Shown here piece by piece: positions 757-63,409 of a stretch of 64,000 nucleotides of DNA. Source of the stretch: an uncultured Verrucomicrobiae bacterium (GTDB lineage: Bacteria > Verrucomicrobiota > Verrucomicrobiia > Chthoniobacterales > UBA10450). Positions within the stretch are counted from its first letter, which is position 1; the number at the start of each line of letters is the position of its first letter. The notes under the pieces were generated by a model. That model worked only from the letters and a program-made list of their open reading frames with translations, searched no databases and was not told the origin of the DNA. The stretch lies in the NCBI GenBank assembly GCA_963742545.1, contig CAVUMF010000008.1, positions 1,085 through 65,084 of the forward strand, written 5' to 3'. Both the position numbers and the translations under genes were made by a program.

Positions 757-1488
757 ATGAGCCGAAACTTTGAGGAACTCGATTACCGCGAAACGCCGCT
801 TGGCGAACTGATCCTGCGCCGACGGCGGATGCTCTCGTTAGGCGGGATGGAGGTCTACGAGGTCAAGCTGGGCGACGCGTTCCTGATGTCGAGCCTGTTC
901 CATGAAGTGGAAGTGGCGCTCGCACACGTTGGTTTATCGGAGTTGAAAGGCACGTCGTGGGACGTGGTGGTCGGCGGCCTCGGGCTTGGCTACACTGCGA
1001 CGGCGGCCCTCGAGCATCATGAGGTCGCCTCCCTTCTCATCGTGGATGCTCTGTCTCCGGTGATTGAATGGCATCAAAAGGCTCTCGTGCCGCTGGGCGA
1101 GAAGCTTACCGGTGATCCGCGCTGCAGGATGTTGCATGCCGACTTTTTTGCCTGCGCGCGATCCGCGGAAGGATTCGACGCGGCGCAACCGGGCCGGCTC
1201 TTCCACGCCGTGCTGCTGGATATCGATCATTCGCCGCACCATTTCCTTGACCCGAGCAACGCCGCTTTCTACCAACCAGAAGGACTGCGCTCGCTCGCCG
1301 CTCATTTACATCCGGGCGGCGTCTTCGCCCTTTGGTCCGATTACCCGCCGGACGAAGATTTCCTCGGCACGCTCGGCAGCTCTTTCGCGACGGCGCGGGC
1401 GCACATTATAAGTTTTCCCAATCCGCTCCTGGAGGACACATCGGAGAGCACGGTCTATGTCGCCTGCAAGGCCGACGAAGCCGCCTGA
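757..1488 (+). CDS. spermidine synthase-like class I SAM-dependent methyltransferase
   Basis: 243-aa ORF. Glycine-rich motif VVVGGLGLGYTA and acidic LLDIDHSP are typical of Rossmann-fold methyltransferase/spermidine-synthase-like proteins. Confidence 0.55.
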   Translation: MSRNFEELDYRETPLGELILRRRRMLSLGGMEVYEVKLGDAFLMSSLFHEVEVALAHVGLSELKGTSWDVVVGGLGLGYTATAALEHHEVASLLIVDALSPVIEWHQKALVPLGEKLTGDPRCRMLHADFFACARSAEGFDAAQPGRLFHAVLLDIDHSPHHFLDPSNAAFYQPEGLRSLAAHLHPGGVFALWSDYPPDEDFLGTLGSSFATARAHIISFPNPLLEDTSESTVYVACKADEAA

Positions 1489-1489
1489 G

Positions 1490-2626
1490 TTATTGCGACA
1501 ATTTCTGGTTGGCGTCGATCAGAGCGTGGGTGGTGGCTGTGGCTTGGCAGTGAGTTTGTTGACCAATGCGTTGGTCGCTTTTTCCAGGGTGATTCCCCAC
1601 GCGCTCATCACCGAGAGGGTTGCGACGACGATGAGCAGAAAGACCCAGATCGGTAGCTCGCGAATGCGCAATCCGAGCCAGATAACGTAGGGCTGATGGA
1701 CCAGATAGATGCCGTAGGAGAAGGCGCCGACCAGCCCGAAGACCCTGGCCGGGTAGGGGAAGCGCGCGATGATTCCAGCCAGCGCCTGCCAGGACAAGGA
1801 AACAGCAAGCGCCGGTGGCGAAGTCGACAAAGATGTAAGGGACAAGGCCGTGATAGAGCTGGAGCGCTGCGGGATAGAGCAGCACTCCGGTGACCAGCCC
1901 GAAGCCGCCGAGGAGGAATCGTTCGACGCGATCTTGCGATCGGCCGGCCCACATTCCCAGAGCCATGCCGAGGGCGAATTCCGGCAGCCGGCAAATGGCG
2001 CAGCCGCCCAGGACCCACATGCCATTCTGTGGATAGGGGACGAGCATCAGGTAGCGCACGAAAAATCCCACGGCGCACGCGACGAGCAAAAAGGCCGATG
2101 GCCCAAGTTTTCTCGCGCCCCAAAAGAGAATCGGGAAAATCAGATAGAACTGAATGAGCATGGAGAAATACCACCAGGCTGCATTCAGGTAGAAGAAGTT
2201 CATGCTGATATCGATGAAGCGCAGACCGAGGAGGCTGAGCACGATCCGGCTATCGACTTTCTCGAAACGCGCCACGAAAGGCGAAACGAGATAAACCAGG
2301 TGCGCGACCCAATACATCGGGTAAAGGCGGAAAAGCCGCGACCGATACCACGCGCCCCACGACACCGGCCCCGACGCGGCCCGGCGCTCCGTCGATTGCA
2401 TCAGCACCCAGCCGCTCAGGATGATGAACGCCCCGACCGCATGGAAACCGAGTCCGGAGATTTTCACCCAGGCGATACCGAGAAAAGTCATCAGGCCGGT
2501 CGCGAAGCTGCTCCAATCGGCCGGGGGGAGCGACCCATGCTCGAAGTAGGTCATGAAAAAATGAAAATAAACGACCACGAGAATGGCCAGGCCTTTTGAA
2601 ATATCGAGCCAGAGAAGTCGCTTCAC
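1490..2626 (-). CDS. acyltransferase family 3 membrane protein (O-acyltransferase type)
   Basis: 378-aa polytopic ORF. N-terminus RLLWLDISKGLAILVVVYFHF matches the conserved start of acyltransferase_3 proteins. Confidence 0.75.
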   Translation of the reverse strand: MKRLLWLDISKGLAILVVVYFHFFMTYFEHGSLPPADWSSFATGLMTFLGIAWVKISGLGFHAVGAFIILSGWVLMQSTERRAASGPVSWGAWYRSRLFRLYPMYWVAHLVYLVSPFVARFEKVDSRIVLSLLGLRFIDISMNFFYLNAAWWYFSMLIQFYLIFPILFWGARKLGPSAFLLVACAVGFFVRYLMLVPYPQNGMWVLGGCAICRLPEFALGMALGMWAGRSQDRVERFLLGGFGLVTGVLLYPAALQLYHGLVPYIFVDFATGACCFLVLAGAGWNHRALPLPGQGLRAGRRLLLRHLSGPSALRYLARIAHSRATDLGLSAHRRRNPLGDERVGNHPGKSDQRIGQQTHCQATATTHALIDANQKLSQ

Positions 2627-2695
2627 GGTGGTTCGGTTAACAGTGCGAGCGCAAATTAGAAAGGAAGAAGTTAAACGTCCGCGCGGCCTAACGAA

Positions 2696-3544
2696 TCAGA
2701 TCGTGACCCGTCTTTCGACCACGACCAAAGCGATGCCGCCCAGGACGGCGACGGCGGCGAGGACAAATCGCAAGCCAAGGGGCTCGCCGAGCAAAAGAAT
2801 GCCGCCGGTGGCCGCGAGAACCGGGACGCTAAGCTGAACGGTGGCGGCGCTGGCAGCTTTCAGGCCCGGGAGCACGCTGTACCAAATGACGTACCCAACC
2901 CCGGAAGCGATCGCACCGGAGAGGATGGCGTAGACGACTCCGGCGCGATCGACCCGCGCCCAGGGAAAGAAGAAGATGCTGAGCGCGGCAGCGAAGGGGA
3001 CGGCCCGCAGGAAGTTGCCGGTTGTGGCACTGGCCGGACTCTTCTCGCCCTTGCCGCGGAGCGAATAAATACCCCAGGCCACCCCGGCGGCAAGCATCAA
3101 GGTCGAGCCACCTAACGATGGTGACGCGAGACCGGGAAACACGAGCAGAACAAGCCCGCCTGCGGCCAGAGTGAGACCGAGGACCTGGCGTGCATGGAGC
3201 TGTTCTCCTTTGCGCAGACCCCAGAGGATCATCGTGGCCTGGACCGCGCCGAAGAGAAGCAATGCGCCTGTGCCGGCCGCGAGGCTGTTATAGGCAAACG
3301 AAAAGGCAGCCGCATAAACGAAAAGGGCCAGCGCGGAGGGCCAGTTACCGGCGCTCATCGAACTCTTGCGGCGCAGTTTCATGATGAGCCAAAGGGCAAC
3401 GGCGCCGGAAAAGATGCGGATAAAGGTGAAACTGGCCGCGTCGATGCCGGTGTGTTTCAAGGCCGCTCGGCAGAGCAAAGAGTTGCTCGCGAAGGCTATC
3501 ATCGCTGTCAGTGTGAGGATGAAAATCCGCGTCGGTTTCACCAT
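2696..3544 (-). CDS. EamA/DMT family transporter
   Basis: 282-aa ORF with about ten hydrophobic helices arranged as two EamA-like halves. Confidence 0.75.
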   Translation of the reverse strand: MVKPTRIFILTLTAMIAFASNSLLCRAALKHTGIDAASFTFIRIFSGAVALWLIMKLRRKSSMSAGNWPSALALFVYAAAFSFAYNSLAAGTGALLLFGAVQATMILWGLRKGEQLHARQVLGLTLAAGGLVLLVFPGLASPSLGGSTLMLAAGVAWGIYSLRGKGEKSPASATTGNFLRAVPFAAALSIFFFPWARVDRAGVVYAILSGAIASGVGYVIWYSVLPGLKAASAATVQLSVPVLAATGGILLLGEPLGLRFVLAAVAVLGGIALVVVERRVTI

Positions 3545-3683
3545 TATCTTTCGCGAGCCGACACGATGCGAGCCTTGCCTAACGACACATCTTCAATTCC
3601 GGGCGCTCGATTGTCATTTGACGCTCCAAAAGCCAAGGTCGAGCTGCATGATTTTTCCGGTGTCGGTTCGTTCGGCATGAGAT

Positions 3684-5514: not shown

Positions 5515-5563
5515 ATGCTCTGCCCTGCCGGTCTCGATTTCTCTGATACACTGCACCAGGTCG

Positions 5564-6355
5564 TTAGGGCAGCAGCTCTACGGCATCGCCTTTACGAATC
5601 ATTCCTTCGGCCAGGACTGCGCCATAGAGGCCGGCGTTTCCGCCATGCTTTTGCGCCACGGCCTTCAACACGGCGGGCGCTTTTTCGCCTGTCTCCGGAT
5701 CGAGCATGATGACCATGCAGCGCGGGTCGCGTTCGACAACGGAGACAACGACTTTTTCTCCGATGCGCAGAGAGCGACCAACGAACCGTTCCTCGGCAAA
5801 ACCTTCCGGGTTCGTTAGGTCGAGGTAAAGGTTGGCCCGGAAGCAAAGCTTGTTGATTTCGATGCCGGTTTCTTCGGCGAGCTTTTTCACCGATTGCAGA
5901 GCGAAGAGCGACAAGGGGCGGCAATCCGTCAGAGCGCGCTCCGAACGCATCAGGGTGATTTCCGGGGCGGGATCGATCCCGGCTCGCAGCAGATCGACCA
6001 ACGCCGGGTCGTCGATCGCGATGGTTTTCCCGGCGGGCGTTTCCACATCAAGCGCCAGGTCCGCCGGATCGGCGTAAAGCGGAGTGGCTCCCGGCGGCAT
6101 TTTTTCGGCCTCGGAAAGGTTAGGCGGCGCAATCGCCTTCGCCGGCTGGCGAAAGCGCGGGCGATAGCGCAGCATTTGGCGCTGATCGCGCGCCGTGAAA
6201 TAAGGAAATCCCCTGGGCGCAGTCGAGCTGCGAAAGGCATAGAGCCGATCGCCATACACTCCGGCGAAGCCGGCGAAGAGTTCGGCCATTTCTTCTCCGC
6301 GCATGCTTTTCACGGGATAGCGCCAAAGGCTTTCGACTCTGCCGATCACGTTCAT
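5564..6355 (-). CDS. MOSC domain-containing protein
   Basis: 263-aa ORF. N-terminus GRVESLWRYPVKSMRGEE is the MOSC N-terminal beta-barrel signature. The C-terminal half is MOSC-like. Confidence 0.8.
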   Translation of the reverse strand: MNVIGRVESLWRYPVKSMRGEEMAELFAGFAGVYGDRLYAFRSSTAPRGFPYFTARDQRQMLRYRPRFRQPAKAIAPPNLSEAEKMPPGATPLYADPADLALDVETPAGKTIAIDDPALVDLLRAGIDPAPEITLMRSERALTDCRPLSLFALQSVKKLAEETGIEINKLCFRANLYLDLTNPEGFAEERFVGRSLRIGEKVVVSVVERDPRCMVIMLDPETGEKAPAVLKAVAQKHGGNAGLYGAVLAEGMIRKGDAVELLP

Positions 6356-11710: not shown

Positions 11711-11839
11711 TCGGTCGCGTGTCGCAGGCCGCGTTTTAGATCCGCCCGATGAATCGCGGCGAGGAGTCGATCCATTTTCGCCTGGGGGAGTTTGCGTCCG
11801 GCTTCTGTATGGCCAGCCGATACCGGCGCACGAGGCGTT

Positions 11840-12980
11840 TCAGGGCTTGAGGTGAGGGTTTAGCAGGTGAAGGATGACTTTCTCCATCCCGGCCACGACG
11901 CGTGTCATCGAGTCGTAATCCAGTTTGTCCGGCGTGTCGCCAGCCGAATGGTAGTACGGATACCGAAAAGGTGCCGTGTCCGTCACCATGATACCGGGAT
12001 AACCGCGCTGCCAGAATGACCATTGATCCGACCAGCCGACACCGGGTACCATGGCAGGCAAGGCACCGCCTTCGGACGGAATCTGCGCTTCCCGGCGAAA
12101 ATCGCCGATAACGTTGCGCAGCAAGGATCGCGAACCGACGTTGCTGACAAAGCCAATAAAGTTCTCCGGTTCGCGGATAGATCAGGGCGAGCCCGGGCAC
12201 GGGATATTTTTGCGAACCTGATTGGCTGGAGAAGTAGCCGATCGTTTCGAGGCTGATCATCGCCTCAATCTGGTCGCCATGTTCCCGAGAGCGACTGGCG
12301 TAGACGAAGCTACCCATCTGCGGGGTTTGAAAGTAACCGGGCTCTTCATTGACGAAAGCGACAATGCGCAAGGTCTTCTCGTTAGGCTGGCCGGCCAGGC
12401 GATGCGCGAGGGCGAGGAGCGCCGCGACTCCGCTTCCGTTGTCGTTCGCACCGGGCGAGCCGTAAACCGAGTCGTAGTGGGCGCCAACGAGGATAATCCC
12501 CGGGGAAGCGCCGGCCAATTCCGCCTCGAGGTTGTAACAGCTCTTGCCCTGAACCTCATATCCATCGCGCCGCACCTTCCAGCCGCTCAGCTCGCTTTCG
12601 ATGTAATGAGCCGCTGCCTGGAGCTGTGGGTAATGCGCCAGGTTTCGCTCGCCAATTTCACCGCCCAGCTTTTGCACGTGAGCGATCAGTTCGTCGCGGA
12701 GCTTCTTTTCGTCCGCGGAAAGCGGCGGGGCATGCCCGCGGAAACTCTCTCCCGGCATCCGGATCATGACCAACCATCCTACCATGAGCAGGAGGACAAG
12801 GCCGGACCAAAAGAGGATGCGAATCGATCGAATAATTTTCGAACGACTTCGCCCGCTCATTCTGCTGGATCTACCTTCTCGCATCACGGAAATCAACGCG
12901 GATGGGGGCGACCTGTCGAAATCGTCGCCAGACTTTTCTGAAAAAATTCCATCGACTCTTTTGCCTCGATCCTTTTTCAT
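11840..12980 (-). pseudogene. M28 family aminopeptidase with a 1-nt frameshift near 12160-12170
   Basis: The N-terminal part (GAHYDSVYGSPGANDNGSGVAALLALA, VNEEPG) reads through ...LIYPRTGE and then loses sense. The conserved continuation NFIGFVSNVGSRSLLRNVIGDF...WSDQWSFWQRGYPGIMVTDTAPFRYPYYHSAGD is in another frame (ORF 11840-12124). GGAGG precedes the ATG at 12980. Confidence 0.75.
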
Positions 12981-13025
12981 CGGGCCTCCAACTGAAATGC
13001 CGCACCTTCCTCGGAATCCAAGATC

Positions 13026-31653: not shown

Positions 31654-31680
31654 TCCGAACGTTCTCTGATGATTTTCTGC

Positions 31681-45377: not shown

Positions 45378-45404
45378 TGAGAGATCTCTGGTTGATCTCT
45401 GCCT

Positions 45405-48046: not shown

Positions 48047-48048
48047 AG

Positions 48049-51327: not shown

Positions 51328-51333
51328 ACGAAT

Positions 51334-52323
51334 ATGAAATCGTTCCTTCATCGCAGTCTCGGGCTGGCGGTCGATCAAGTGTTGTGCGGCACCCTGGCCC
51401 TGCTCCACCGCCGACATGCCGGCCGCGTCTCGACCCGCGATGCGGCCGAAAAATACTTTGCCGCCTGCGAACGACAGACGCGAGCCGAGTATTTCGCGCT
51501 GCCGTCGGCGATGGAGGACCTTCGCGAGCTCGCGCCTGACATCATTACCTGGCGGAGTCCGGCTGCATCGGTCGCCGAATTTCCCGTCAATGGGCGCGCG
51601 CGCGTCGTCCTTTATCGGGTGCGCCCAGATGCGCCGACCGTCATTATGTTGCACGCCTTGATGTCAGTCTCGGATGCCGGCTACGTCCGCTGGGCGCAGC
51701 GCTTCAACGCGGCCGGTTGGAATGCCGCATTTGTGCATCTCCCGTTTCATTATTCACGCCGGCCGCGGGGACATCTCAATGGCGAGCTGTGCTTCACGGC
51801 CGATCTCGGCCTGATCGGCGATACGATGCGACAGGCGGTGGTGGAGATTCGGCAGCTCCTGACGTGGTTGCGCGCGCAAGGCACGAAGGAGTTTGGGTTG
51901 CTTGGAACCAGCTATGGCGGCTGGATTGCCGCTCTGCTCGCGTCGCTCGAGCCGGATCTAAGGTTTCTCGGGCTGCTCGCCCCGATGGTAAACATCGGCC
52001 ATGCGTTGTTTGAGGGTCCGACCAGTTGGGCGCTGCGCGCGCATCTGGCGCGGGCCGGTCTTGACCGGGCACTGGTAGATCGCCACGCACACCTCTCCTC
52101 GCCGCTGCGAGCACGTCCCGCGGGCGACGTCGCAGAGCGAACGGTCATTATCGGTGGCGCCTTCGATCGCATTGCGCGGTTGAGCGATCTCGCGATGTTG
52201 CGCGATGCCTGGCCGGGCTCGGAGCTGGTCACCGTGCCGCATGCACATTTCGGCTACGGCATGATCCCGCTGGCGTTGGAGTGGTTGGAAACGCGCGGTC
52301 TGGTAGTGCGTGCCAGCAATTAA
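51334..52323 (+). CDS. alpha/beta hydrolase
   Basis: GTSYGGW nucleophile elbow. 329 aa. Confidence 0.6.
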   Translation: MKSFLHRSLGLAVDQVLCGTLALLHRRHAGRVSTRDAAEKYFAACERQTRAEYFALPSAMEDLRELAPDIITWRSPAASVAEFPVNGRARVVLYRVRPDAPTVIMLHALMSVSDAGYVRWAQRFNAAGWNAAFVHLPFHYSRRPRGHLNGELCFTADLGLIGDTMRQAVVEIRQLLTWLRAQGTKEFGLLGTSYGGWIAALLASLEPDLRFLGLLAPMVNIGHALFEGPTSWALRAHLARAGLDRALVDRHAHLSSPLRARPAGDVAERTVIIGGAFDRIARLSDLAMLRDAWPGSELVTVPHAHFGYGMIPLALEWLETRGLVVRASN

Positions 52324-52358
52324 TCGGGCCGACAGGGCGAATGCAGAAGCGGCCGATT

Positions 52359-53369
52359 TCAAACACTCCGCGATTTCATCTGGCTTGGCTGATCGCCCCA
52401 CTCGCTTTGAATCAAAGGGAGGAGGCCCTCTACGTCTGCGGGCTTGAATAAACGGCTCTTGCTGCGTCTGGCGGGCGCGGTGAGATCGCGCACCCGCAGA
52501 ATCTCTCCGTTTTTCCAGACCCAGGCGTCTTCGTTGTATGGGCCGACTTTGCGTGGATCGCTCCAGGTGTGGATTGAGACCAGCCGATCGGTCAGCGCAG
52601 CAGCGATGTGCATGGGGCCGCTATCGACGCTGATCGTGAAACGCGCCCGGCGGATCAGCCAGACGAGTTGCAGGACGGTGGTGTGATTGAGCAGGTTGAC
52701 GCAGTTATCCGGCATCGCGATTTCGCGCTTCTTCAGCCCGACGAGTACGACACGATGCGGGGCGAGCGCGTGGCAGAATTCTTCCACCGCCAGTCGGCTG
52801 AGCGATTTGCGCCGCCCGCGAGCGAAAGGATGGAGCAGGACAAAAGGCGTGTCCTCATCGAAGCGCGCAATGGAATCACCGCTTGGCAACGGAAAGCAGA
52901 GCGGACGCGTCACTGGCACACCGAAAACCTCGACAAGCTTGAGGTAGCGTTCGACAGCGTGCACGTCGCGGTCGACCTGCGCGGTGTGCTGATAGAAAAG
53001 ATGCGCGCCTTCCCGGGCATCGCTCATGCCGTAGAACTCGCGCGGATGACTCATCTTCCCGATGAGCGCACTCCGGAGCAGGCCTTGAAAATCGAGCGCC
53101 ACGTCCGGTTGCAGCCGCGCGGTCTGCCGCAGCCAGGGGAGAAGATGCTTCGACATCCCAAAGCCGCCGAGGTCGCCCCGGGGGAAAATGTGGACATGGT
53201 CGACACTTCGGTTGCCGCGCAGAAGGGGCGCCCATTCCGGGTTGATGACCCAGGTGATCTCAGCCTCGGGATACGCGTCGCGGATCAACGCCGCCGACGG
53301 CAGGGTATGGACAATATCGCCTAACGAACTCGGCTTGATAATGAGGATGGAGGAAATTACCGATTTCAA
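52359..53369 (-). CDS. glycosyltransferase family 9 (heptosyltransferase-like)
   Basis: ILIIKPSSLGDIVHTLP, VDSGPMHIAAAL. 336 aa. Confidence 0.8.
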   Translation of the reverse strand: MKSVISSILIIKPSSLGDIVHTLPSAALIRDAYPEAEITWVINPEWAPLLRGNRSVDHVHIFPRGDLGGFGMSKHLLPWLRQTARLQPDVALDFQGLLRSALIGKMSHPREFYGMSDAREGAHLFYQHTAQVDRDVHAVERYLKLVEVFGVPVTRPLCFPLPSGDSIARFDEDTPFVLLHPFARGRRKSLSRLAVEEFCHALAPHRVVLVGLKKREIAMPDNCVNLLNHTTVLQLVWLIRRARFTISVDSGPMHIAAALTDRLVSIHTWSDPRKVGPYNEDAWVWKNGEILRVRDLTAPARRSKSRLFKPADVEGLLPLIQSEWGDQPSQMKSRSV

Positions 53370-53464
53370 GTCAGACAGGATTTCAGGATTGTCGCGATTC
53401 GAATCAGATACGGGCTCGGTTCAATTTCTGACCCGGCAGATCCTGTTAATCATGTCTCATCCTT

Positions 53465-54187
53465 CTAACGTCCCACGGCGAGGCGGGCGGCGAGGCGATC
53501 GGGCAGGCCGGCTGCGAGAATTTTTCGCTGCGCGGTCTCGAGATCGTATTTCACCCGGCGTTGCTCAACGACCTGGCGTTCGACGTCGTAGATGCCGTAG
53601 GCGGCGCGCCAATCGCGGTCGCGCGGCTGGCCGATGCTGCCGGGGTTAATGAAATATTTCTTCCCCGCGTCGAGCACGATCTGCCCGACGGTGATGCGAT
53701 GCACGTTATCGTCACACACAAAGGCGGTCGGCCAATGGGTATGACCGAAAAAGCAGAGCGGCGTGTGCTGGCAGGTGAAGCTCGCGATGGCATCGAGATC
53801 GTTGAAGACATAGCCCCATCGCTCCGGCGTATCGAGAGTTGCGTGCACGATGGTGAAGTCACCCACCAGTCTCGTCAGGCGCAACTCGGATAGCCAGGCC
53901 TTGTCGTCGGCGGAAAGATGTTCGCGCGTCCAATCGATCGCCTCCTCGGCCAATTCGTTGAAGCTCTCGGTCGGGGCAACAATCGAGGCCTGCTCATCGT
54001 GATTTCCCTTCACCACCGGGCAATCGAGTTCACGGATGCGCTGCACGCATTCGCTTGGATTGGCGTTATAGCCGACGACGTCGCCAAGGCAGACGAAATG
54101 CGTGCAGGACTGGGCGCGCGCGTCTGCCAGCACGGCATCGAGCGCTTCGAGGTTTGCGTGGATGTCACTGAGGATGGCGTACCGCAT
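53465..54187 (-). CDS. metallophosphoesterase family protein
   Basis: SDIHAN, GDVVGYN, GNHD and FGHTH motifs. Confidence 0.8.
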   Translation of the reverse strand: MRYAILSDIHANLEALDAVLADARAQSCTHFVCLGDVVGYNANPSECVQRIRELDCPVVKGNHDEQASIVAPTESFNELAEEAIDWTREHLSADDKAWLSELRLTRLVGDFTIVHATLDTPERWGYVFNDLDAIASFTCQHTPLCFFGHTHWPTAFVCDDNVHRITVGQIVLDAGKKYFINPGSIGQPRDRDWRAAYGIYDVERQVVEQRRVKYDLETAQRKILAAGLPDRLAARLAVGR

Positions 54188-54198
54188 CGATCGAAAGG

Positions 54199-54957
54199 TT
54201 ACATTTGTCTATCGGGAATGCGTTCTTGCAACGGGATATCGAGTTTTTCTTCGAGAAATTCCAGGCGTTTGAGCAGGGTCGGCAGGCGCTCGCGCTCGCC
54301 CCGGTCGTAGAGCTCGCGGAGAGCCTCGTAGGCCTTGCGCTCGCGTCCCGGCACATAGGAAAGCTCGTAGGCTGCGAAGCGTTTGTCATATTCCGGCGCG
54401 CCGGGGAGTGATGCCGCCTGTGCGTAGTAATGAGCAGCGGCCGCGTGATCGTTGAGTTTCTCCCGGCAGAGGCGGGCGAGTGATTCGTAGAGCTGCGGGC
54501 GGTCAGGGTTGTTCTGAATTCCGCGTTCAAGGAAATCTTTTCCGAGGGCAAGATACCCGCGCTGCGCCTCGCGGCGCAGGGCCTCGTTAGGCTTGGAAGG
54601 ATCACTCATTGCGGCCGCGCTCGCATTCCAGGCCATGTGCCAGGCGGCCATGTCCCAGAAGAGGATGGAGCGCGGCTGGAGCGTTGTCGCTTCACGAAAG
54701 AGGAGAAGCACGCGGCCCCACTGCGTCCGTTCCCAGGCGACATGCGCCTGAATGAAAACGAAATCCGCGACTACTGACCGAAAGCCGCTCAAGGCCGCGA
54801 GAAAACCGAGCTGTCCAAGTTGCTCGCGCAGATCGAGGCCAAGCTGCGCCTGGTGGAAATAGGCCCTCCGATGGTCGGCGGTCAGAGCCGACTCGATCGG
54901 CAGGCGGAGGGCGCCGAAGGCAAGGACAAGAAAGGCGACGATAGCTCCGCGAATCAT
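54199..54957 (-). CDS. TPR-like membrane-anchored protein
   Basis: N-terminal TM helix followed by helical repeats (YYAQAASLPGAPEY...). Start set at the ATG abutting the upstream permease stop. Confidence 0.45.
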   Translation of the reverse strand: MIRGAIVAFLVLAFGALRLPIESALTADHRRAYFHQAQLGLDLREQLGQLGFLAALSGFRSVVADFVFIQAHVAWERTQWGRVLLLFREATTLQPRSILFWDMAAWHMAWNASAAAMSDPSKPNEALRREAQRGYLALGKDFLERGIQNNPDRPQLYESLARLCREKLNDHAAAAHYYAQAASLPGAPEYDKRFAAYELSYVPGRERKAYEALRELYDRGERERLPTLLKRLEFLEEKLDIPLQERIPDRQM

Positions 54958-55868
54958 AATTCTCTTCCGTGAAAAGCGACCCAGGCAAAGAAAAGATAGA
55001 CCGAAACGTAGATGCAACCCAGCACCGCCGTCTGGGCGAAAAGCGCCATCGGGATCGGAACGCCGGCGACGATGCCGTCGATGAGATTGAAGAGTTGCAG
55101 ATCAGGGAAGACGAGAGCGGCAAAACCAAGAGAGATGTGCGCGAGCCAGCCGCCGCTTTGTGCCTGCAGCCAATAAGCACGCGCCGTTGCCTGAAGATGT
55201 CCGATGAAATATACGAAAACCATCACCACGATGGTGAAGATGTTTGAGGTTGCGAAGGTGGAGACGAAAAGGGTGAGCGAAGCGAGCAGCGCGGCCTTGA
55301 GATAGATCAGCACAATGCCCGGGAGCAGGTTGGCGTTGAAAGCAGAAGCCTTCAGACTGCGGATCGCGGCCTCGACCTGCCCGGGAGAAAGCGCGGCGCC
55401 GGAGCGCAGCGTCTCACCCAGGAGGATTTGCTCCCTAACGAAAAGCAGGCCGAGAAAAAGCGCGCTCATTGCGAGGACGCTGAACGCGAGAAGGAGAAGC
55501 ACGCCGGCCAGCTTGCCGATGAGATATTCGTAACGCGGGACTGGTTTGGCGAGAATGGTGTAGATAGTACGCTCCTCGAGGTCGCGCGGAATGAGCTGGG
55601 CCGTGGCTGCGATCGCGAGGAGCGAGCTGAAGATGCTCATCGCGCCTAACGAAACGTCCTTCAGGATTTGAAATTCTTCCTGGAAAGCAAGCCGCGCCAT
55701 GAAAGCTGAGCTGCCGATCAGGAGGAGGCCGAAGAGGAGCAGGAAATAAAAGAGCTTTAGCCTGACGAGTCCGGTAAAGGTGTTGCCGGTGAGAGCCGCG
55801 ACCCGGGCGACGGAAAACGAACGGTGTTTCACTTCAGGCTGGAAGAGGCGGGTTGCAGCGGATCTCAT
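54954..55868 (-). CDS. ABC-2 type transporter permease
   Basis: 304-aa, 6-TM ORF immediately downstream of an ABC ATPase, with a 4-nt overlap. Confidence 0.65.
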   Translation of the reverse strand: MRSAATRLFQPEVKHRSFSVARVAALTGNTFTGLVRLKLFYFLLLFGLLLIGSSAFMARLAFQEEFQILKDVSLGAMSIFSSLLAIAATAQLIPRDLEERTIYTILAKPVPRYEYLIGKLAGVLLLLAFSVLAMSALFLGLLFVREQILLGETLRSGAALSPGQVEAAIRSLKASAFNANLLPGIVLIYLKAALLASLTLFVSTFATSNIFTIVVMVFVYFIGHLQATARAYWLQAQSGGWLAHISLGFAALVFPDLQLFNLIDGIVAGVPIPMALFAQTAVLGCIYVSVYLFFAWVAFHGREL

Positions 55869-56719
55869 TTCTCTTCGGCGGATCTGGTCGCTTCCAGGAA
55901 CAGTTCCTCGAGCGTGGCCCGGGACTGGCGCTGCGCCACGAGGCGGGCGCTGGATTTGGCAAGGAGCGCTCCAATTTTGGCCAGAACCTCCGGGGTGGTG
56001 TTTTCCAGGATCAGCTCGGTTTGGTTTTCGATCGCGAGCAACTCATCCACCGATCCCTCCTTGACGAGAACGCCCTGCGCCAGGATACCGACGCGATCGC
56101 AGACTTCCTGTACCTGAGCGAGGAGATGAGAGGAAAGCAGCACAGTGATACCGCAGTTTTTCAGGTCGAGGATCAGGTCGCGAATTTCGGCCGAGCCCTC
56201 GGGATCGACGCCCGCGGTCGGCTCGTCCAGCACGATGAGTCTCGGTTCCTGGATGAGCGCCTGCGCGAGGCCGATCCGCTGCAGCATCCCCTTGGAATAA
56301 GTGCCGAGCCGGCGGTCCCGCGCGTCCTCCAGCCTAACGAGAGCGAGTAACTCGTTGGTGCGCGCTCGCAAATGCTGCCCGCCCAAGCCGCAGAGTTTTC
56401 CGTAGAAATGAAGCGTCTCTGTGCCGGTGAGGTATTTGTAAAAATAAGGACTCTCCGGCAGGAAACCGACCGCTTCGCGACTGCTCACTTCCCGGCTGTC
56501 GCGGCCGAAAATCCTGGTCGTGCCGGCGGTCGGCGAGACGAGGCCGAGGATGATCTTGAGAGTCGTGCTTTTGCCCGATCCGTTAGGGCCGAGCAGGCCG
56601 TAAACCTGGCCGGACGCCACCTCCAGGTTCAGCCCGCGGAGCGCGACTACTCCGGCCCGGCGAAACGGGATCGGGAAAACCTTCCTGAGTCCGCGGACCG
56701 CAACCGCCGGCTCAATCAT
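55865..56719 (-). CDS. ABC transporter ATP-binding protein
   Basis: Walker A GPNGSGKST, signature YSKGMLQR, Walker B LIVLDEPTAG. Start set at MIEPAV. Confidence 0.85.
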   Translation of the reverse strand: MIEPAVAVRGLRKVFPIPFRRAGVVALRGLNLEVASGQVYGLLGPNGSGKSTTLKIILGLVSPTAGTTRIFGRDSREVSSREAVGFLPESPYFYKYLTGTETLHFYGKLCGLGGQHLRARTNELLALVRLEDARDRRLGTYSKGMLQRIGLAQALIQEPRLIVLDEPTAGVDPEGSAEIRDLILDLKNCGITVLLSSHLLAQVQEVCDRVGILAQGVLVKEGSVDELLAIENQTELILENTTPEVLAKIGALLAKSSARLVAQRQSRATLEELFLEATRSAEEK

Positions 56720-56987
56720 GGCGAATCGCGAATCCGTGCGCTTGCGGCGGTTGAGGGAGGAGCGACTCCGTTTGTTTGCGAATGTGTGCGCGCAGTCCGC
56801 TCTGCCCGATCGCGTCAACGAAGGCGCGGACTTCGCTTTCCTCGCCCGTCGTCTGCATTTCGACTCGACCGTCCGGCAGGTTGCGCACCCAGCCGGTGAC
56901 GTCGAAGCCCTTGGCCACATGTTTGACCGACCAGCGAAAGCCAACACCCTGAACGCTGCCTTCAAAGAGAATCTGGAGCGAAAACAT
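56712..56987 (-). CDS. acylphosphatase
   Basis: GSVQGVGFRWSV...TGWVRNLPDGRVE signature. The start could also be the ATG at 57029. Confidence 0.75.
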   Translation of the reverse strand: MFSLQILFEGSVQGVGFRWSVKHVAKGFDVTGWVRNLPDGRVEMQTTGEESEVRAFVDAIGQSGLRAHIRKQTESLLPQPPQAHGFAIRHD

Positions 56988-57025
56988 AGGCCGGTCCGGC
57001 AATCGTAAGCGCCCCCGCTGCTTTG

Positions 57026-57540
57026 TCATCCGTGGAATGAGCGGATGGTCGCTTTAGGTTGGGCAACGTTTTCGCCTAACGAGATGCCTGGGTCGGCCCG
57101 CTCCTGGCAATAGAAAATCGGCGTCGGACTCGCATCCGACAACGGCTCGGTGGGCGCGATGAGGCGCGGATCATTCGAGTCGAGCTGGAATTCTTCAGAA
57201 TGGCTGGCGAGGACGGGCGGCGCCGATGGTGGCGCCAGCTTCTCAGCGACCAGGGTGGCCGCGGTCGGCGGGATATCTTCATTCGCTACGTAGTCGCTCT
57301 CGCCATCCCACCGTTGCACTTTCATGTAGCCGAAGGAAGGCCGGATGACTTTCATGATCGAATCCCTCGGCAATTGGGAGTTGGGTCCGTTGCCCTGTTG
57401 CGGACCGTAGTGGCAAAACGGGTTTGCGGAGTTACGACAGAATACCAGCCGCCGGTCTTGCCGGAGAATACGCCAGTCTTGCCTGACGAAGCGCAGCCGA
57501 ATGCGAGGAGCGCCATGGCCGCAAAGAGAGGGAAGGAGAG
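57026..57540 (-). CDS. hypothetical protein with SH3-like segment; start or frame uncertain
   Basis: FCHYGPQQGNGPNSQLPRDSIMKVIRPSFGYMKVQRWDGESDYVANEDI looks like a bacterial SH3-type segment. A lipoprotein-like signal (LLAFGCASSGK) sits upstream in a different frame. Confidence 0.35.
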
Positions 57541-57545
57541 AAGTG

Positions 57546-57986
57546 CTACTTGTAGCTATAAACGAAACACATTCCTGCCGCCTCGCCCTCGCCCAGGCGG
57601 ACACGGATGAAGTATTCGCCGCTGCTGGTCACCGAAAGACCAGCCGCCACTTTTGTGCCGGAGTCATATTTTTCTGCCGCTACCGGCGCCCCAGTCTCGT
57701 CGAAAACCGCGATTGAAACCTTTTTCGCCTTGTCGGTTGCGCCGGCGCAAAACCAGTACTGGTTTCCGGAATAAAGGTTGACCGCGATCAGCTTGCTCTC
57801 GTTAGGCGCGAGGGTCCCCGCCCAGTGTCCGTCCCGCAGCTTGAAGCCATCGTTGGAAAACGCGCCCGCCAGATCGAGCGCCACCTCGCGCGCAGCAACT
57901 TCCTGGTTGGTCTCGGCCAGCACCGGACAGGCGAGGGTCAGCGCGATGAGAGTTGTCAGGCAATAACGTGACCAGCGCGGCATCAT
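57546..57986 (-). CDS. hypothetical secreted protein
   Basis: 146-aa ORF with signal peptide CLTTLIALTLACPVLA. No family recognised. Confidence 0.5.
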   Translation of the reverse strand: MMPRWSRYCLTTLIALTLACPVLAETNQEVAAREVALDLAGAFSNDGFKLRDGHWAGTLAPNESKLIAVNLYSGNQYWFCAGATDKAKKVSIAVFDETGAPVAAEKYDSGTKVAAGLSVTSSGEYFIRVRLGEGEAAGMCFVYSYK

Positions 57987-58810
57987 TGATCTTTCTTTTG
58001 GATTTCTCGCATCAGCTTATTCACGCTCTGGTTCAGCTTGGTCACCTCGGCGAGCGAGAGGCTTTGGCCGAAGGGTTTGGCCACGAGCTGTTCGATCTCG
58101 CCGAGTTGGGCATCCACGCTTTTCACGAGCGGATCGTTCTGCATCTCGGGGGAAATCTGCCCGATCTTCGCACGCATGAAGCGGAGCAGTTCCGGCTGAC
58201 GCAGGATCTGTCCGAGCTTCTCGTCATAGTTTTTCTCGATCAGGCCCCCCACCACCTGCGTGCCGCGGATCCAACCGCCCAGACTAACGAGGATCACGAG
58301 ATCCTGATCGCGGTGCGATTGCATCGAGGCTTTGACCTCGTTTTGGGTCGCCTCGAGTTCCTCCTGGAGGGTCGCCCATTCGTTATTCTCCGCGAATTGA
58401 TTGATGCTGCTCCCGCGCGCCAGGATGTTTTCGCTCACGCCGAGGGCTTTCGCCATTTTCATAACGTCGCCGCCGATGTTTTTTACCTGTTGCGTATCCT
58501 GGGCCTCAACCGCGATAAAGCCGTCGGCGATCAAGCCGCCAAGGTTGAGCGCGATCTGCGCGCGGGTCTTGTAGTTCATCGCGATCGGTCCGCGATAACG
58601 CGAGGCCCAATCCGGTGGCGCCGGTTTGGCGAGCGCGGCGAAAAGCTCACCTGGTGTCGGGATGGTCACTTCGTCTGTCTTAACCGCCTGCGACATCTGC
58701 TCGGCAGAAAGACTCGCCGGAGTCGGCGATGGAGTGGCCGTGGGCGCGGCAAAGGCCGCGCCGCTCAGCAACTGCAACAGGATGATCCCAGCCCCGGTCC
58801 GCACGAACAT
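57983..58810 (-). CDS. hypothetical secreted protein
   Basis: 275-aa ORF with signal peptide IILLQLLSGAAFA, mostly helical. Overlaps the next gene by 4 nt. Confidence 0.5.
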   Translation of the reverse strand: MFVRTGAGIILLQLLSGAAFAAPTATPSPTPASLSAEQMSQAVKTDEVTIPTPGELFAALAKPAPPDWASRYRGPIAMNYKTRAQIALNLGGLIADGFIAVEAQDTQQVKNIGGDVMKMAKALGVSENILARGSSINQFAENNEWATLQEELEATQNEVKASMQSHRDQDLVILVSLGGWIRGTQVVGGLIEKNYDEKLGQILRQPELLRFMRAKIGQISPEMQNDPLVKSVDAQLGEIEQLVAKPFGQSLSLAEVTKLNQSVNKLMREIQKKDQ

Positions 58811-59055
58811 GCCCGCAGATTAACCACGCCGCAGGGCAATGCCAGCGGGAAATCCAATCCACCGCAGCCAGCTACGGCGCCACTGCACGCACTGACTGGA
58901 ACGAGTTGGCTACCGGGACGGGTTCGATCATTTGTAGCCTGGCCGCGAGGGAGCGTATCCTTCCGGAGAGACTCACCACGGCGAATTCAGTCTGTTCGCC
59001 AAGAGCTCGCCCGGAGCGAGAAAGAGGCGTTGCGCCGTGTGCAAATCGCGACTAA

Positions 59056-60350
<1,295 letters not shown>

Positions 60351-60351
<1 letters not shown>

Positions 60352-60716
60352 TGGACGCCACCGGCTACGGCGATTTTCGCGCGCGACGCGAGGCCACCAT
60401 CTGGCAGCGGATGAATCACGTTTTGCGCGTGCTTCTTTTCCTTGCGATCTGGCTGCTCATTATCAGCTTCTTCCTCCCTCCCTACAAAAAACTGAATCAA
60501 AGCCGGGCCGAGATTGAGCAATTGCAGGCCCAATTGACCGAGCAAAAAACACTCCTCGCGCGCCAGACCAAAGAGGTCACGCTCCTGAAATCGGATCCGA
60601 CCTATTTGGAAACGATCGCGCGCGACAAGCTCGATTTGATGAAGGAAGGCGAAACCATCTTTCGCCTCGAAGCACGGCGGTCTGACGCACAACCTCCCGC
60701 GAAGCCGCAGCCGTGA
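60351..60716 (+). CDS. ftsB: FtsB/DivIC family septum formation initiator
   Basis: Single TM helix followed by a coiled coil, and DPTYLETIARDKLDLMKEGETIF. GTG start overlapping the eno stop. Confidence 0.7.
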
Positions 60717-60877
60717 GGTGGACGTTGCGCGCAGGGTAGCGCAAGCTTCCAGCTTGCCAGTTAACGTTTCCGCGCGAGCGGGGAAACTCGCGCGACCCCG
60801 TTTGTCGTTACGGGCGACAGTCAGGGATGGGCTGACACGCACACCTACGACGGAGAACGGCCGGGCAAGCAGGCGCT

Positions 60878-61723
60878 TTATTCGGAGAGATCGACCTTCA
60901 ATCCGTCGTAGGCAAGGCCGACGTACGGTGGCAGCTCACTCTCCGCGCTCTGCGGCAGCTCGTGGCAAATATGGGTGAAAAGAGTCCGGGTCGGCCGCAC
61001 GCGCCCTGCGACCTCGAGCGCTTGGTCAACGCTCAAGTGGGTCGGATGCGGCTTGTGCCTCAGGGCATCGACCACGAGCAGCTGCACGCCTTCAATCTGG
61101 CGCGCGATGTGGTCTGGCACGGCGCTGCAATCGCTCAGGTAGGCGAGGAGTCTGCGGCCGTCGCGGGCAAAGAGGTAACCGTAGGTTTCGGAGCTTCCAT
61201 GTGGCACGGGAAGCGGCGTGACGTGGGTGTCGCCTAACGAAAATGGCCCGGAAATAATGTGCGGCTCCGGTTTCAAATATCCCGGCCAGGGGCTCGGTGT
61301 TTTGAAGGCGAATTCGTAGACGCGTTCCAAGTTCGCCATCGTTTCGGCCGAGGCGTAGACCGGCATCCGCCCGTCGCGTGGCGCGGCGAATCGCCGCAAG
61401 TCGTCGAAACCCATGACGTGATCGGTATGTGCGTGGGTCATGATCGCGGCGTCGACCTGCCAGATGTTTTCACGCAGGCATTGGGTGCGAAAGTCCGTTC
61501 CCGTATCGACGACATATGCGCCTTCGGGTGTTTCGAGGTAGATCGAAGCACGGGTGCGATTGTCGCGCGGATCGGTCGAATGGCAGACCGGGCAGTTGCA
61601 ACGAATCATCGGCACGCCCTGCGAGGTCCCGGTCCCGAGAAAGGTCAGGCGAAGCTGCGAATTCGCGGCCAGTTGAGAGTTGGGGGTTGAGAGTTGAGAG
61701 TCGGAGGCGTTCAGAGACTCCAT
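60878..61723 (-). CDS. MBL-fold metallo-hydrolase (PhnP-like)
   Basis: LTFLGTGTSQGVP..C.C..C and HAHTDH motifs. The first ~24 codons are encoded by a heptamer-repeat hairpin arm. Confidence 0.75.
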   Translation of the reverse strand: MESLNASDSQLSTPNSQLAANSQLRLTFLGTGTSQGVPMIRCNCPVCHSTDPRDNRTRASIYLETPEGAYVVDTGTDFRTQCLRENIWQVDAAIMTHAHTDHVMGFDDLRRFAAPRDGRMPVYASAETMANLERVYEFAFKTPSPWPGYLKPEPHIISGPFSLGDTHVTPLPVPHGSSETYGYLFARDGRRLLAYLSDCSAVPDHIARQIEGVQLLVVDALRHKPHPTHLSVDQALEVAGRVRPTRTLFTHICHELPQSAESELPPYVGLAYDGLKVDLSE

Positions 61724-61752
61724 CTCTCAACTCTCAACCCTCAAGTCTCAAC
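61672..61752. repeat. hairpin whose arms are tandem heptamers (GTTGAGA)n / (TCTCAAC)n
   Basis: Left arm gttgagagttgggggttgagagttgagag (61672-61700), right arm ctctcaactctcaaccctcaagtctcaac (61724-61752). The loop contains the ATG of the minus-strand MBL gene. Confidence 0.8.
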
Positions 61753-61756
61753 TCCT

Positions 61757-63409
61757 GTGTTGCTCAGTTTGCTCCGAATCAAGAACCTCGCTTTGGTCGA
61801 GGATCTGGAGTGGGAGCTGACGGCCGGCTTCACCGCCATCACGGGAGAAACCGGAGCCGGCAAATCGATCATCATCGGCGCGCTCAAGTTGCTGCTCGGC
61901 GAGCGGGCGGATAAATCGCTCATTCGCACCGGAGCAGAGTCATGCACGGTCGAAGCCATTTTTGTGGCCGAGGATTTTTCCGGACTCAACCGGTGTCTCG
62001 CGGAAGGGGGCGTAGAACCGGCGGAGGGCGAGCTGATCTTGAAGCGCAGCTTTTCGTTAGGCGGAAGCAACCGGCAGTTTGTCAACGGTTCGCCCACGAC
62101 GCTCGCATTTCTGAAAATGATCGGCGACGAGCTGGTCGATCTGCACGGACCGCACGATCATCAATCCCTCCTCTCGCCGGAGCGGCAGCTGGATTTGCTC
62201 GATGGCTTCGCCCATGCAGAAAGGGAACGGCGGGAGTACCAGCAAGCCTACCGGCGTTTGCAAACTCTGGTGGCGGAGGAAGCGGCGCTGAGCGCGGCGG
62301 AATCAGCCCGCGAACAGGAACTCGACCTGTTGCGCCACCAGGCGACTGAAATTGCCGCGGCCAAACTTCAGCCTAACGAGGAGGAAGAGATCGTAGCGCG
62401 CTACAAACTGGCGAGCAACAGCCGGCGCCTGATCGAGCTGGCGACAACGATTTCACGGCAACTTTCCGAAGTGGAGAACGCAGTGCTAAACCAGCTCGCG
62501 GAGACCCAGCGGCTCTTCCGGGAGTTGGAGAAGATCGACTCCGGCCTGGCGGAAACTTCCGCTGCTCATGCCGGCGCGGTCGTCGAATTGACGGAAGTGG
62601 CGCGAACCCTCGATCGTTATGCCGAACGGCTCGATCTTGATCCGGAGCAGCTCGCGCAACTCGAGCAGCGGATCACTTTGCTCGAAACGCTCAAGCGCAA
62701 ATACGGCGCGACCATTCCGGAGGTGATCGACTTCAGCGAGCGGATCGCGGAACGGATGCGCAAGATCGAGGGACGCGACACCGAGTTGAAACGGCTGGGT
62801 GCCGAGATCAGCCAGACACACGCTACGCTCGAACGGACAGCGACGGCGTTGCGCAGAGCGCGCACGAAAGTGGCGCCCAAACTGGCCGCGACCGTCGGGC
62901 GAAACCTGGCGGACCTCGGATTTCGCCAGGCGAAGTTTGAAGCCAGCCTAACGCCTAACGACGAGCCTCGACCTCTCGGGACTGATTCGCTTGAGCTGCT
63001 CTTCTCGCCTAATCCCGGGGAGCCGCTCAAGCCGCTGCGCCAAATTGCTTCGAGCGGCGAAATCTCGCGCCTGATGCTCGCGATCAAATCGGCGCTCGCC
63101 GCGCAGGACGCGATTCCGCTTCTCGTCTTCGACGAAATCGACGCCAACGTCGGAGGCGAGATCGCGAATGCGGTGGGAGCGAAGATGCGGACACTGGCGG
63201 AGAAACATCAGGTAATCTGCATCACGCACCTGCCACAGGTGGCCGCGGGCGCGACGACGCAATTTGTCGTCACGAAAGAAGTGGCGAGCGGCCGCACGTT
63301 TTCCGAACTCCGTGAGGTGAAAGGCAAAACGCGCCAGGAAGAAATCGCGCGGATGCTCGGCGGCCAGAGCGAATCGGCACTCAAACACGCCGCGACGTTG
63401 CTCCAGTAA
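61757..63409 (+). CDS. recN: DNA repair protein RecN
   Basis: LLSLLRIKNLALVEDLEW start, Walker A GETGAGKS, long coiled coil, C-terminal SGGEISRLMLA and LVFDEIDANVGG. GTG start chosen at 61757. Confidence 0.9.
   Translation: MLLSLLRIKNLALVEDLEWELTAGFTAITGETGAGKSIIIGALKLLLGERADKSLIRTGAESCTVEAIFVAEDFSGLNRCLAEGGVEPAEGELILKRSFSLGGSNRQFVNGSPTTLAFLKMIGDELVDLHGPHDHQSLLSPERQLDLLDGFAHAERERREYQQAYRRLQTLVAEEAALSAAESAREQELDLLRHQATEIAAAKLQPNEEEEIVARYKLASNSRRLIELATTISRQLSEVENAVLNQLAETQRLFRELEKIDSGLAETSAAHAGAVVELTEVARTLDRYAERLDLDPEQLAQLEQRITLLETLKRKYGATIPEVIDFSERIAERMRKIEGRDTELKRLGAEISQTHATLERTATALRRARTKVAPKLAATVGRNLADLGFRQAKFEASLTPNDEPRPLGTDSLELLFSPNPGEPLKPLRQIASSGEISRLMLAIKSALAAQDAIPLLVFDEIDANVGGEIANAVGAKMRTLAEKHQVICITHLPQVAAGATTQFVVTKEVASGRTFSELREVKGKTRQEEIARMLGGQSESALKHAATLLQ
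62946..62960 (+). repeat. two overlapping copies of the over-represented word GCCTAACG
   Basis: GCCTAACGCCTAACGA inside recN, encoding S-L-T-P-N-D. Confidence 0.9.

Follow-up and report, generated by a model that had tools for sequence, protein, structure and literature searches.

A dispersed, strand-symmetric 9-mer reminiscent of DNA uptake sequences in uncultured soil Chthoniobacterales

Introduction

According to a 2025 survey, sequence-specific DNA uptake has been described only in the Neisseriaceae and the Pasteurellaceae, and the uptake sequences concerned are 9-10 nt long, are present in hundreds to thousands of copies, avoid reading frames that include a stop codon, are enriched in the core genome and vary between clades (bioRxiv 10.1101/2025.10.24.684340). 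Terminators account for about half of the copies in both families, and the copies there frequently form inverted pairs (bioRxiv 10.1101/2025.10.24.684340). Here, we describe a short word, the 9-mer GCCTAACGA, that is repeated throughout much of a 64,000 nt stretch of DNA (the window) from an uncultured Verrucomicrobiae bacterium of the order Chthoniobacterales (GenBank assembly GCA_963742545.1, contig CAVUMF010000008.1, positions 1,085 to 65,084), and compare it with the known uptake sequences and with other short iterated words. An earlier note, made from the letters of the window alone, had drawn attention to the word and likened it to an uptake sequence or a protein-recognition word.

The closest described systems are the DNA uptake sequence (DUS) of the Neisseriaceae (GCCGTCTGAA and its dialects), for which the receptor is the minor pilin ComP, and the uptake signal sequence (USS) of the Pasteurellaceae, which is found in a Hin-type (AAGTGCGGT) and an Apl-type (ACAAGCGGT) form and has ComN/PpdA as predicted receptor. 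The DUS and GCCTAACGA are both non-palindromic, 9-10 nt long and present in both orientations at approximately 0.4-1.7 copies per kb; both occupy stop-free frames within genes and have weakly conserved extra flanking bases, and they may also be alike in varying between clades, in being enriched in core and genome-maintenance genes (recN in this case) and in being missing from apparently acquired DNA. With the USS, GCCTAACGA shares a 9-bp core with weaker flanks, a mostly intragenic location, a strong frame preference, an excess of one-mismatch variants, and amino acid costs of the kind expected of molecular drive. Of the generic features of the DUS and USS as a class, those of copy density (a non-palindrome of ~9-12 nt with roughly 0.1-1.5 copies per kb), enrichment, balance of orientations and stop-free frames with constraint on codons and amino acids were found for GCCTAACGA. 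However, its sequence is unrelated to that of the DUS, which belongs to the Betaproteobacteria and not the Verrucomicrobiota, and both sequence and phylum are likewise unrelated to those of the USS, from which it also differs in having neither phased AT-rich flanks nor terminator pairs. Membership in the DUS (GCCGTCTGAA) or USS (AAGTGCGGT/ACAAGCGGT) sequence families was ruled out, the sequence being unrelated and the host a member of the Chthoniobacterales.

Abundance of the word

The window contains 23 copies of GCCTAACGA (13 on the forward and 10 on the reverse strand), a density of 0.36 per kb and approximately 70 times that due to chance, as dinucleotide shuffles are expected to hold 0.33 copies and the largest number in any shuffle was two. 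It is the most frequent 9-mer in the window, the most frequent 8-mer being CCTAACGA. The 8-mer GCCTAACG, the form in which the word had first been reported, is present in 24 copies (14 forward and 10 reverse), where 1.45 are expected and no shuffle had more than five. All of the positions reported for it were correct, and the observation that A is the next base in 23 of the 24 cases also holds, the sole exception being at 62946, where the 8-mer overlaps the perfect copy at 62953 to form GCCTAACGCCTAACGA.

Five sites said to retain CCTAACGA but to differ in the base that comes first (3111, 5562, 5813, 55434 and 59059) were all found. The corresponding one-mismatch 9-mers are ACCTAACGA at 3110-3118 (forward) and 5812-5820 (reverse, in the MOSC gene) and CCCTAACGA at 5561-5569 (reverse, where it overlaps the stop codon that ends the MOSC gene, 5564-6355 on the reverse strand), 55433-55441 (forward) and 59058-59066 (forward, directly ahead of the start codon of the enolase gene). 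One-mismatch variants of all kinds number 31 against approximately 11 expected, and because they are enriched only about 2.8-fold the peak at exact GCCTAACGA is a sharp one.

More demanding null models led to the same result. Under a 4th-order Markov model, GCCTAACGA was still the top outlier, with 1.84 copies expected against the 23 observed. For a codon-aware null, genes were called by third-position G+C and synonymous codons were permuted within each gene in 2000 rounds, a procedure that preserves each protein as well as the codon usage of each gene. This null is conservative, because the rare TTA and CCT codons contributed by the word itself stay in, and in coding DNA it gave 1.02 copies on average and six at most, when 19 were observed (approximately 19-fold). 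The excess, reported previously on base composition, hence outlasts a codon-aware comparison. The over-representation of GCCTAACGA is confirmed as real, and composition, codon usage and protein sequence do not account for it.

Anatomy and orientation

In a pool of 53 non-orthologous sites, drawn from the window together with its close relatives, only the 9 bp of the word were fixed. Each position of the flanks holds <0.3 bit, there being a weak run of pyrimidines on the 5′ side and purine or A on the 3′ side (tyyc-GCCTAACGA-raa), and phased AT-rich flanks were not detected at these 53 sites. The word is non-palindromic (its reverse complement is TCGTTAGGC) and at none of 83 sites was there a true inverted partner within 70 nt. 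Hairpins were looked for around the sites and none were seen, the folding energy around them being equal to that at random positions, and an Rfam scan of the window at the gathering threshold returned no matches. A repetitive extragenic palindromic (REP) element, a miniature inverted-repeat transposable element (MITE) or a repeat of the NTS type was rejected, as the flanks carry so little information, there is no hairpin and approximately 87 % of the copies are intragenic. The NTS/dRS3 repeats of Neisseria, which are recognised by the single-stranded DNA nuclease Ssn, are also abundant and connected to transformation; they are oriented, hairpin-forming sequences of approximately 30 bp with 2 % inside genes, and the Ssn/NTS system was rejected for GCCTAACGA on anatomy, since the latter is a bare 9-mer that is mostly intragenic and forms no hairpin.

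GC skew is positive (monotonic) over nearly the whole window, which therefore lies on one replichore. The 13 : 10 split of GCCTAACGA between the strands fits a 50 : 50 distribution (p=0.68), and among copies in genes eight are in the sense and 12 in the antisense orientation with respect to transcription. Across the clade, the G-rich strand has 44 copies and the C-rich strand 34 (p=0.31). The absence of a strand skew of the Chi or KOPS (FtsK orienting polar sequence) type, claimed in the earlier note, thus holds both in the window and clade-wide.

This balance bears directly on whether GCCTAACGA could be a Chi-like hotspot for RecBCD or AddAB, or a polar motif akin to KOPS or the architecture imparting sequences (AIMS). 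Chi sequences (e.g. GCTGGTGG in E. coli), KOPS and AIMS resemble it in being short, over-represented, taxon-specific and found in core DNA, where GCCTAACGA too appears to be enriched. Chi and KOPS are, however, strongly co-oriented with replication, and a leading-strand skew of that sort is not seen here; were 75 % of the copies co-oriented, 13 or fewer of 23 would be found with P=0.04, and the 44 : 34 split across the clade points the same way. The length of 9 bp and the enrichment of approximately 70-fold also surpass those of known Chi sites. A Chi- or KOPS-like role is, in our view, very unlikely.

Reading frames and effects on proteins

Approximately 20 of the 23 copies (~87 %) lie in genes, and these genes, of which there are about 17, are unrelated to one another: nuoN, nuoM, nuoL, nuoH and nuoG, fabD, a GT9 glycosyltransferase gene, ABC transporter genes, the enolase gene, a metallo-beta-lactamase-fold gene, recN, an M28 peptidase gene and several genes for hypothetical proteins. 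The remaining two or three are intergenic. The names given previously to nuoH, nuoG, nuoL/M/N, fabD, the MOSC gene, GT9, enolase and RecN were borne out by Pfam, and the copies are not confined to one repeated gene family or mobile element.

A stop codon (TAA or TAG) falls in two of the six frames of GCCTAACGA. In the window, 11 copies are read as S-L-G (TCG TTA GGC), in line with the approximately 11 counted earlier, and eight as P-N-E/D (CCT AAC GAr), where approximately nine had been claimed. One further copy is read as L-V-R-L (GTT AGG), one supplies the stop codon (TAG) of nuoN and two are intergenic. Relatives use all four of the open frames (S-L-G, P-N-E, L-T and V-R).

The S-L-G copies are at 835-843 (reverse) in an open reading frame at 757-1488 (forward) with no Pfam match; at 38359-38367 and 38881-38889 (both forward), antisense in nuoH (38149-39258, reverse); at 39921-39929 (forward), antisense in nuoG (39471-41189, reverse); at 45684-45692 (reverse) in fabD (45405-46352, forward); at 53319-53327 (forward) in the GT9 gene (52359-53369, reverse); at 55644-55652 (forward) in an ABC-2 permease gene (54954-55868, reverse), where the outgroups have S/A-L-G; at 57074-57082 (forward) in a hypothetical gene (57026-57355, reverse); at 59767-59775 (reverse) in the enolase gene (59068-60351, forward); at 61232-61240 (forward) in the metallo-beta-lactamase-fold gene (60878-61723, reverse), where the outgroups have E/K-L-G; and at 62054-62062 (reverse) in recN (61757-63409, forward), where the outgroups have S-A/S-S/T.

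The P-N-E/D frame is used at 12379-12387 (reverse) in the M28 peptidase gene (11736-13187, reverse), which reads CAG CCT AAC GAG (Q-P-N-E) and for which the orthologous position in the relative L083 also has GCCTAACGA; at 33295-33303 (reverse) in nuoM (33132-34622, reverse; T-P-N-D); at 34986-34994 (reverse) in nuoL (34622-36418, reverse; L-P-N-E); at 41179-41187 (reverse) at the start of nuoG (ATG CCT AAC GAG, M-P-N-E); at 54584-54592 (reverse) in a hypothetical gene (approximately 54199-54957, reverse); at 57799-57807 (reverse) in another (57546-57983, reverse), with A-P-N-E against K-P-Q/H-E/D in the outgroups; at 62371-62379 (forward) in recN, with Q-P-N-E against V-A/G-x-E; and in the overlapping double copy GCCTAACGCCTAACGA at 62946-62961 (forward), also in recN, made up of the partial 8-mer at 62946 and the perfect copy at 62953. 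The third open frame is that of 56332-56340 (forward) in an ABC ATPase gene (55865-56719, reverse). The copy at 31679-31687 (forward) overlaps the TAG stop codon of nuoN (31681-33135, reverse). Of the intergenic copies, that at 2686-2694 (forward) lies 1 nt past the stop codon of an EamA transporter gene (2696-3544, reverse), in the 69-nt spacer ahead of an acyltransferase gene (1490-2626, reverse), and that at 3577-3585 (forward) precedes the ATG (3544) of the same EamA gene by 33 nt, in a region that is either intergenic or leader.

The word leaves a clear mark on codons and peptides. TTA was described as a rare leucine codon, and indeed accounts for only 42 of the 1933 leucine codons in the window (~2 %), with ten of the 42 inside the word. 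In the gene set used for the codon null, ten of the 19 S-L-G tripeptides are encoded by TCGTTAGGC and eight of the nine P-N-[ED] tripeptides by GCCTAACGA, and both tripeptides are two to three times commoner than amino acid composition predicts.

At 11 sites that could be aligned with outgroups, eight had an amino acid replacement, and three were synonymous recodings of an S-L-G already present. The latter include the GxSxG active site of FabD, where the peptide of the G-L-S-L-G-E motif exists in the outgroup L010 and it is the rare TTA codon that creates the word, and the GT9 site, where the peptide is conserved in the outgroups and the gain is synonymous. Replacements include QPRL to KPNE (the copy at 54584), KPQE to APNE, LVGL to LVRL (56332), S-A-S to S-L-G, and A-L-D to P-N-D (the recN copy at 62953, T-P-N-D). 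The enolases of all 11 relatives used for comparison have Y-K-[LF]-G-E, and in the window TCG TTA GGC yields Y-S-L-G-E, a conserved lysine being replaced by serine. Taken with the codon null, exceeded approximately 19-fold, and the use of four frames in relatives, the changed protein at eight of 11 sites directly shows that, as had been proposed, selection is on the DNA word and not on a peptide. Judged from these alignments, the replacements and recodings together have the pattern that would be expected from a molecular drive turning near-matches into GCCTAACGA.

There is some room for a by-product in these data, in that S-L-G is functionally needed in FabD (GxSxG) and was there beforehand in outgroups at three of the 11 comparable sites. 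That the word stems from chance, codon usage, a repeated peptide motif or gene family, or a small mobile element of the REP/MITE or NTS hairpin kind is nonetheless refuted, and we consider such an origin negligible: the dinucleotide, 4th-order Markov and synonymous-codon nulls are exceeded 12- to 70-fold, the two strands give two unrelated peptides and the relatives use four frames, the 23 copies are scattered over ~17 unrelated genes and intergenic DNA with flanks that have neither conserved sequence nor hairpin and with no Rfam match, and GCCTAACGA was found in independent ENA and JGI assemblies.

Distribution in relatives

Positions 49068-64000 of the window differ from L001 (ENA ERZ25039562 contig_75405), a metagenome contig on which the enolase of the window was found, at 42 positions in 14.9 kb, and because they are 99.7 % identical the two are considered strains of the same species. 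All 11 copies of GCCTAACGA in this overlap are kept in both. The nearest enolases in GTDB species representatives share 84-85 % identity and come from Chthoniobacterales/'Spartobacteria' metagenome-assembled genomes (MAGs), the next ~25 being nearly all from Verrucomicrobiota. Three of the four nearest representatives do not have GCCTAACGA, and the fourth (L004) has three copies in 19 kb.

Relatives were also obtained from JGI metagenomes using RecN. Eight contigs from seven different metagenomes (L082-L089) encode RecN proteins 78-82 % identical to that of the window, have 57-60 % G+C and are monophyletic with the window. Every one of them carries GCCTAACGA, at 0.6-1.75 copies per kb, and because most of these copies lie in genes that are non-syntenic with the window the word is not limited to one syntenic region. 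The recN site at 62054 is kept in all eight. The 61232 site is perfect in six of the seven contigs that cover it (L082, L083 and L085-L088) and is ACCTAACGA in L084. At the 62371 site, in turn, the window, L082 and L088 have the perfect word, L084-L087 and L089 have GCCTGACGA and L083 has GCCTGAGGA, and individual sites are hence subject to turnover.

A large sister clade (RecN ~70 % identical, 55 % G+C) is without GCCTAACGA but carries an unrelated word, AAGATCGACA (aAGATCGACAa/t; word B), which is absent from the window. Word B is dispersed at 0.2-0.84 copies per kb in L135, L092, L091, L138, L161, L153, L128 and others, and its strand split of 22 : 19 shows no skew. In L135, 13 copies were found against 1.45 under codon shuffling, in both orientations and in frames read as K-I-D, V-D-L and S-I.

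Iterated words of another kind were also seen. L063 (Verrucomicrobiae MAG CB6_Bottom.37, CAUZVJ010000021.1, 15.4 kb) has a palindromic word, CTTGGCCAAG, that resembles the cyanobacterial highly iterated palindrome HIP1 and occurs approximately one to two times per kb. Its form is (C)TTGGCCAA(G), with 29 copies of CTTGGCCAA and 16 of TTGGCCAA, and in coding DNA there are 25 copies where codon shuffling predicts 1.96. The top words of other verrucomicrobial MAGs are TCCGGCAAA in L004 (seven copies), GATACCGGC in L015 (eight), ACCTGCTCG in L022 (12) and CATCGAGCA in L029 (nine). These may be further lineage-specific iterated words, being two- to tenfold over the codon-shuffle null, though the statistics are weak, as these words had been selected for topping their loci.

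The L063 word shows the phylum to harbour other kinds of iterated word, and this lends something to the idea that GCCTAACGA is spread inside the cell, by a drive of repair or gene conversion like that proposed for HIP1 or like very-short-patch repair of the Vsr type, in which a clade-specific enzyme corrects near-matches to GCCTAACGA with no uptake involved. The signatures expected are the same, namely overriding of codons and amino acids, lack of skew, clade specificity and depletion in recently acquired DNA. HIP1 (GCGATCGC), the function of which is unproven, is like GCCTAACGA iterated, intragenic with a frame bias and lineage-specific. HIP1 is, however, an 8-bp palindrome, and words linked to methyltransferases are likewise short palindromes, whereas GCCTAACGA is non-palindromic and, at 9 bp, exceeds the usual length of methyltransferase specificities; the HIP1-like case is rather CTTGGCCAAG in L063. 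Effects of the Vsr type shift word frequencies modestly and not ~70-fold. In addition, GCCTAACAA, the product of CpG deamination of GCCTAACGA, is common (five copies), so that the CpG position is not obviously protected. We consider a repair drive unlikely, but of the explanations without uptake it is the most probable.

Placement along the window

The copies of GCCTAACGA are unevenly placed, with 19 in the 31.6-64 kb part of the window and four in the 0-31.6 kb part. Their density is high in the core genes nuo, fabD, eno and recN, and the 1.65 kb of recN alone hold three perfect copies and a partial one. Between 12388 and 31678 there is a copy-free stretch of 19.3 kb; were the copies placed uniformly, a gap of this length would have P=0.007. 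The stretch includes a DUF772 transposase fragment and RHS, PATR and CHB_HEX surface-protein genes, together with genes for a beta-lactamase, an HNH endonuclease and a tricorn-type protease, and part of it is of lower G+C (0.54). For this one window, a depletion of GCCTAACGA in acquired DNA is suggestive only, because the copy-free stretch also has ordinary-looking genes.

Within the stretch, a 425-bp unit at 23070-23919 is in tandem duplicate (97 % identical) inside the RHS-repeat/CHB_HEX surface-protein genes. The DUF772 transposase fragment (21433-21849) and the dip in G+C to 0.54 adjoin this duplication.

An uneven density could also mirror a domain structure of the chromosome, as might be seen if GCCTAACGA were the binding motif of an abundant chromosomal protein (nucleoid-associated, condensin-loading or involved in segregation) and were kept for chromosome organisation, and a dense, orientation-independent and sharply defined word would suit such a protein. 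Known sites of this type, such as parS, matS, NBS and SBS, are palindromes of which a genome has tens, and they do not recur approximately once per 1-3 kb in essential genes with conserved residues giving way to them. The quick turnover of sites and the presence of a different word in a close clade would also be easier to understand under a drive than under positional selection. Hence, a role in chromosome organisation appears improbable.

A possible role in DNA uptake

The DUS and USS are the only experimentally characterised class of sequences known to us with the whole combination of properties seen here. On this ground we lean, if only slightly, towards GCCTAACGA being a DNA-uptake-enhancing sequence (DUES), functionally similar to the DUS and USS, of one clade of uncultured soil Chthoniobacterales. 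Its enrichment, strand symmetry, stop-free frames, associated amino acid replacements, clade-wide occurrence and turnover, as well as the second word of the sister clade, are all matters of observation, while uptake, a receptor and natural competence are what we infer from them. Of the likeness to an uptake or protein-recognition word put forward in the earlier note, the anatomy and the clade-specific distribution thus fit, and the function stays inferred.

As an uptake sequence, GCCTAACGA would operate as follows. A surface DNA receptor, belonging to a competence or type IV filament machine, would bind double-stranded DNA containing GCCTAACGA in either orientation, and fragments bearing the word would be preferentially taken up and then recombined into the chromosome. 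Biased uptake combined with homologous recombination would constitute a molecular drive, and this drive would fix new copies at near-matches where no stop codon arises, despite the rare codons or amino acid replacements that they bring.

Several observations weigh against a role in uptake. Inverted pairs of GCCTAACGA of the terminator type were found at none of the 83 sites, whereas about half of DUES copies are in terminators, and approximately 87 % of the copies of GCCTAACGA are intragenic as opposed to approximately 34 % for the DUS of N. meningitidis. Competence, pilus and DNA-receptor genes were not found in the ~70 kb available for this genome or in the clade contigs, though their absence is uninformative, the genome sequence in view amounting to <130 kb. 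A literature search found nothing linking natural transformation, uptake sequences or iterated palindromes to the Verrucomicrobia. The words of the two clades, GCCTAACGA (word A) and AAGATCGACA (word B), are wholly unrelated and do not differ by one to three bases as do the dialects of the DUS and USS. Several related lineages have no clear iterated word. Finally, L160 and L133 (RecN ~70 % identical), which are nested in the word-B clade, carry GCCTAACGA at 0.14-0.23 copies per kb, with five copies in L160 against 0.22 under codon shuffling; given these two, GCCTAACGA is either older than the clade of the window or arose or spread twice. A scan for prepilin N-termini with a regular expression likewise gave no matches in the window and the GCCTAACGA-bearing contigs.

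A broader proposal is that soil Chthoniobacterales have sequence-specific uptake, which would be the first case outside the Proteobacteria, with unrelated words in sister clades (GCCTAACGA and AAGATCGACA) and a receptor class so far undescribed. We put this forward tentatively, with a confidence that falls a little short of even. What appears to be new is a convergent, uptake-sequence-like word in a further phylum, together with an unrelated second word in a sister clade. Among the literature matches listed for GCCTAACGA itself, all were in unrelated contexts.

If uptake is indeed involved, recognition of self-DNA before uptake would be a recurrent solution, and natural transformation would take place in a dominant and poorly cultivable soil lineage, in which gene flow would be policed by self-DNA recognition. 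It would also point to a new DNA-uptake receptor, and the addition of GCCTAACGA to constructs could open a transformation route for these bacteria. GCCTAACGA can also serve as a lineage marker when genomes are binned, and a local lack of copies may be a sign of acquired DNA. Should uptake play no part, the displacement of conserved residues in enolase and RecN by a 9-mer that is swapped for another in a sister clade would still represent a strong, unexplained molecular drive.

Other features of the region

Two features of the complex I genes in the window are recorded here. A single open reading frame at 41648-43612 includes both a NuoE-type (2Fe-2S thioredoxin-like) domain and a NuoF domain, and these genes appear to be fused. 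In the 527-aa open reading frame at 43974-45557, the NuoD (49-kDa) domain is present only in the C-terminal half, and this may be a NuoCD fusion.

Two intergenic regions contain inverted tandem heptamers. Between yqeY and ispD (48051-48157), 5.6 units of AACGTTC face 5.3 units of TTGAACG, and between the metallo-beta-lactamase-fold gene and recN (61671-61754), 4.4 units of AGTTGAG face 4.4 units of CTCTCAA. Each of these pairs of arrays could fold into a long hairpin built of heptamers. The same forward-then-reverse architecture was seen in relatives, in L124 (8339-8457 and 19121-19160), L146 (957-1074) and L144 (4455-4566), with heptamers that differ from those in the window, e.g. (AATGACG)n, and arrays of ACTCTCAAC are present in L084, L121 and L109. 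A further sequence, GAATGACGAA, was rejected as a third clade-specific word, as it corresponds to local tandem heptamer arrays and is not dispersed. The heptamer arrays look like a family-wide class of element in which the sequence of the unit is variable.

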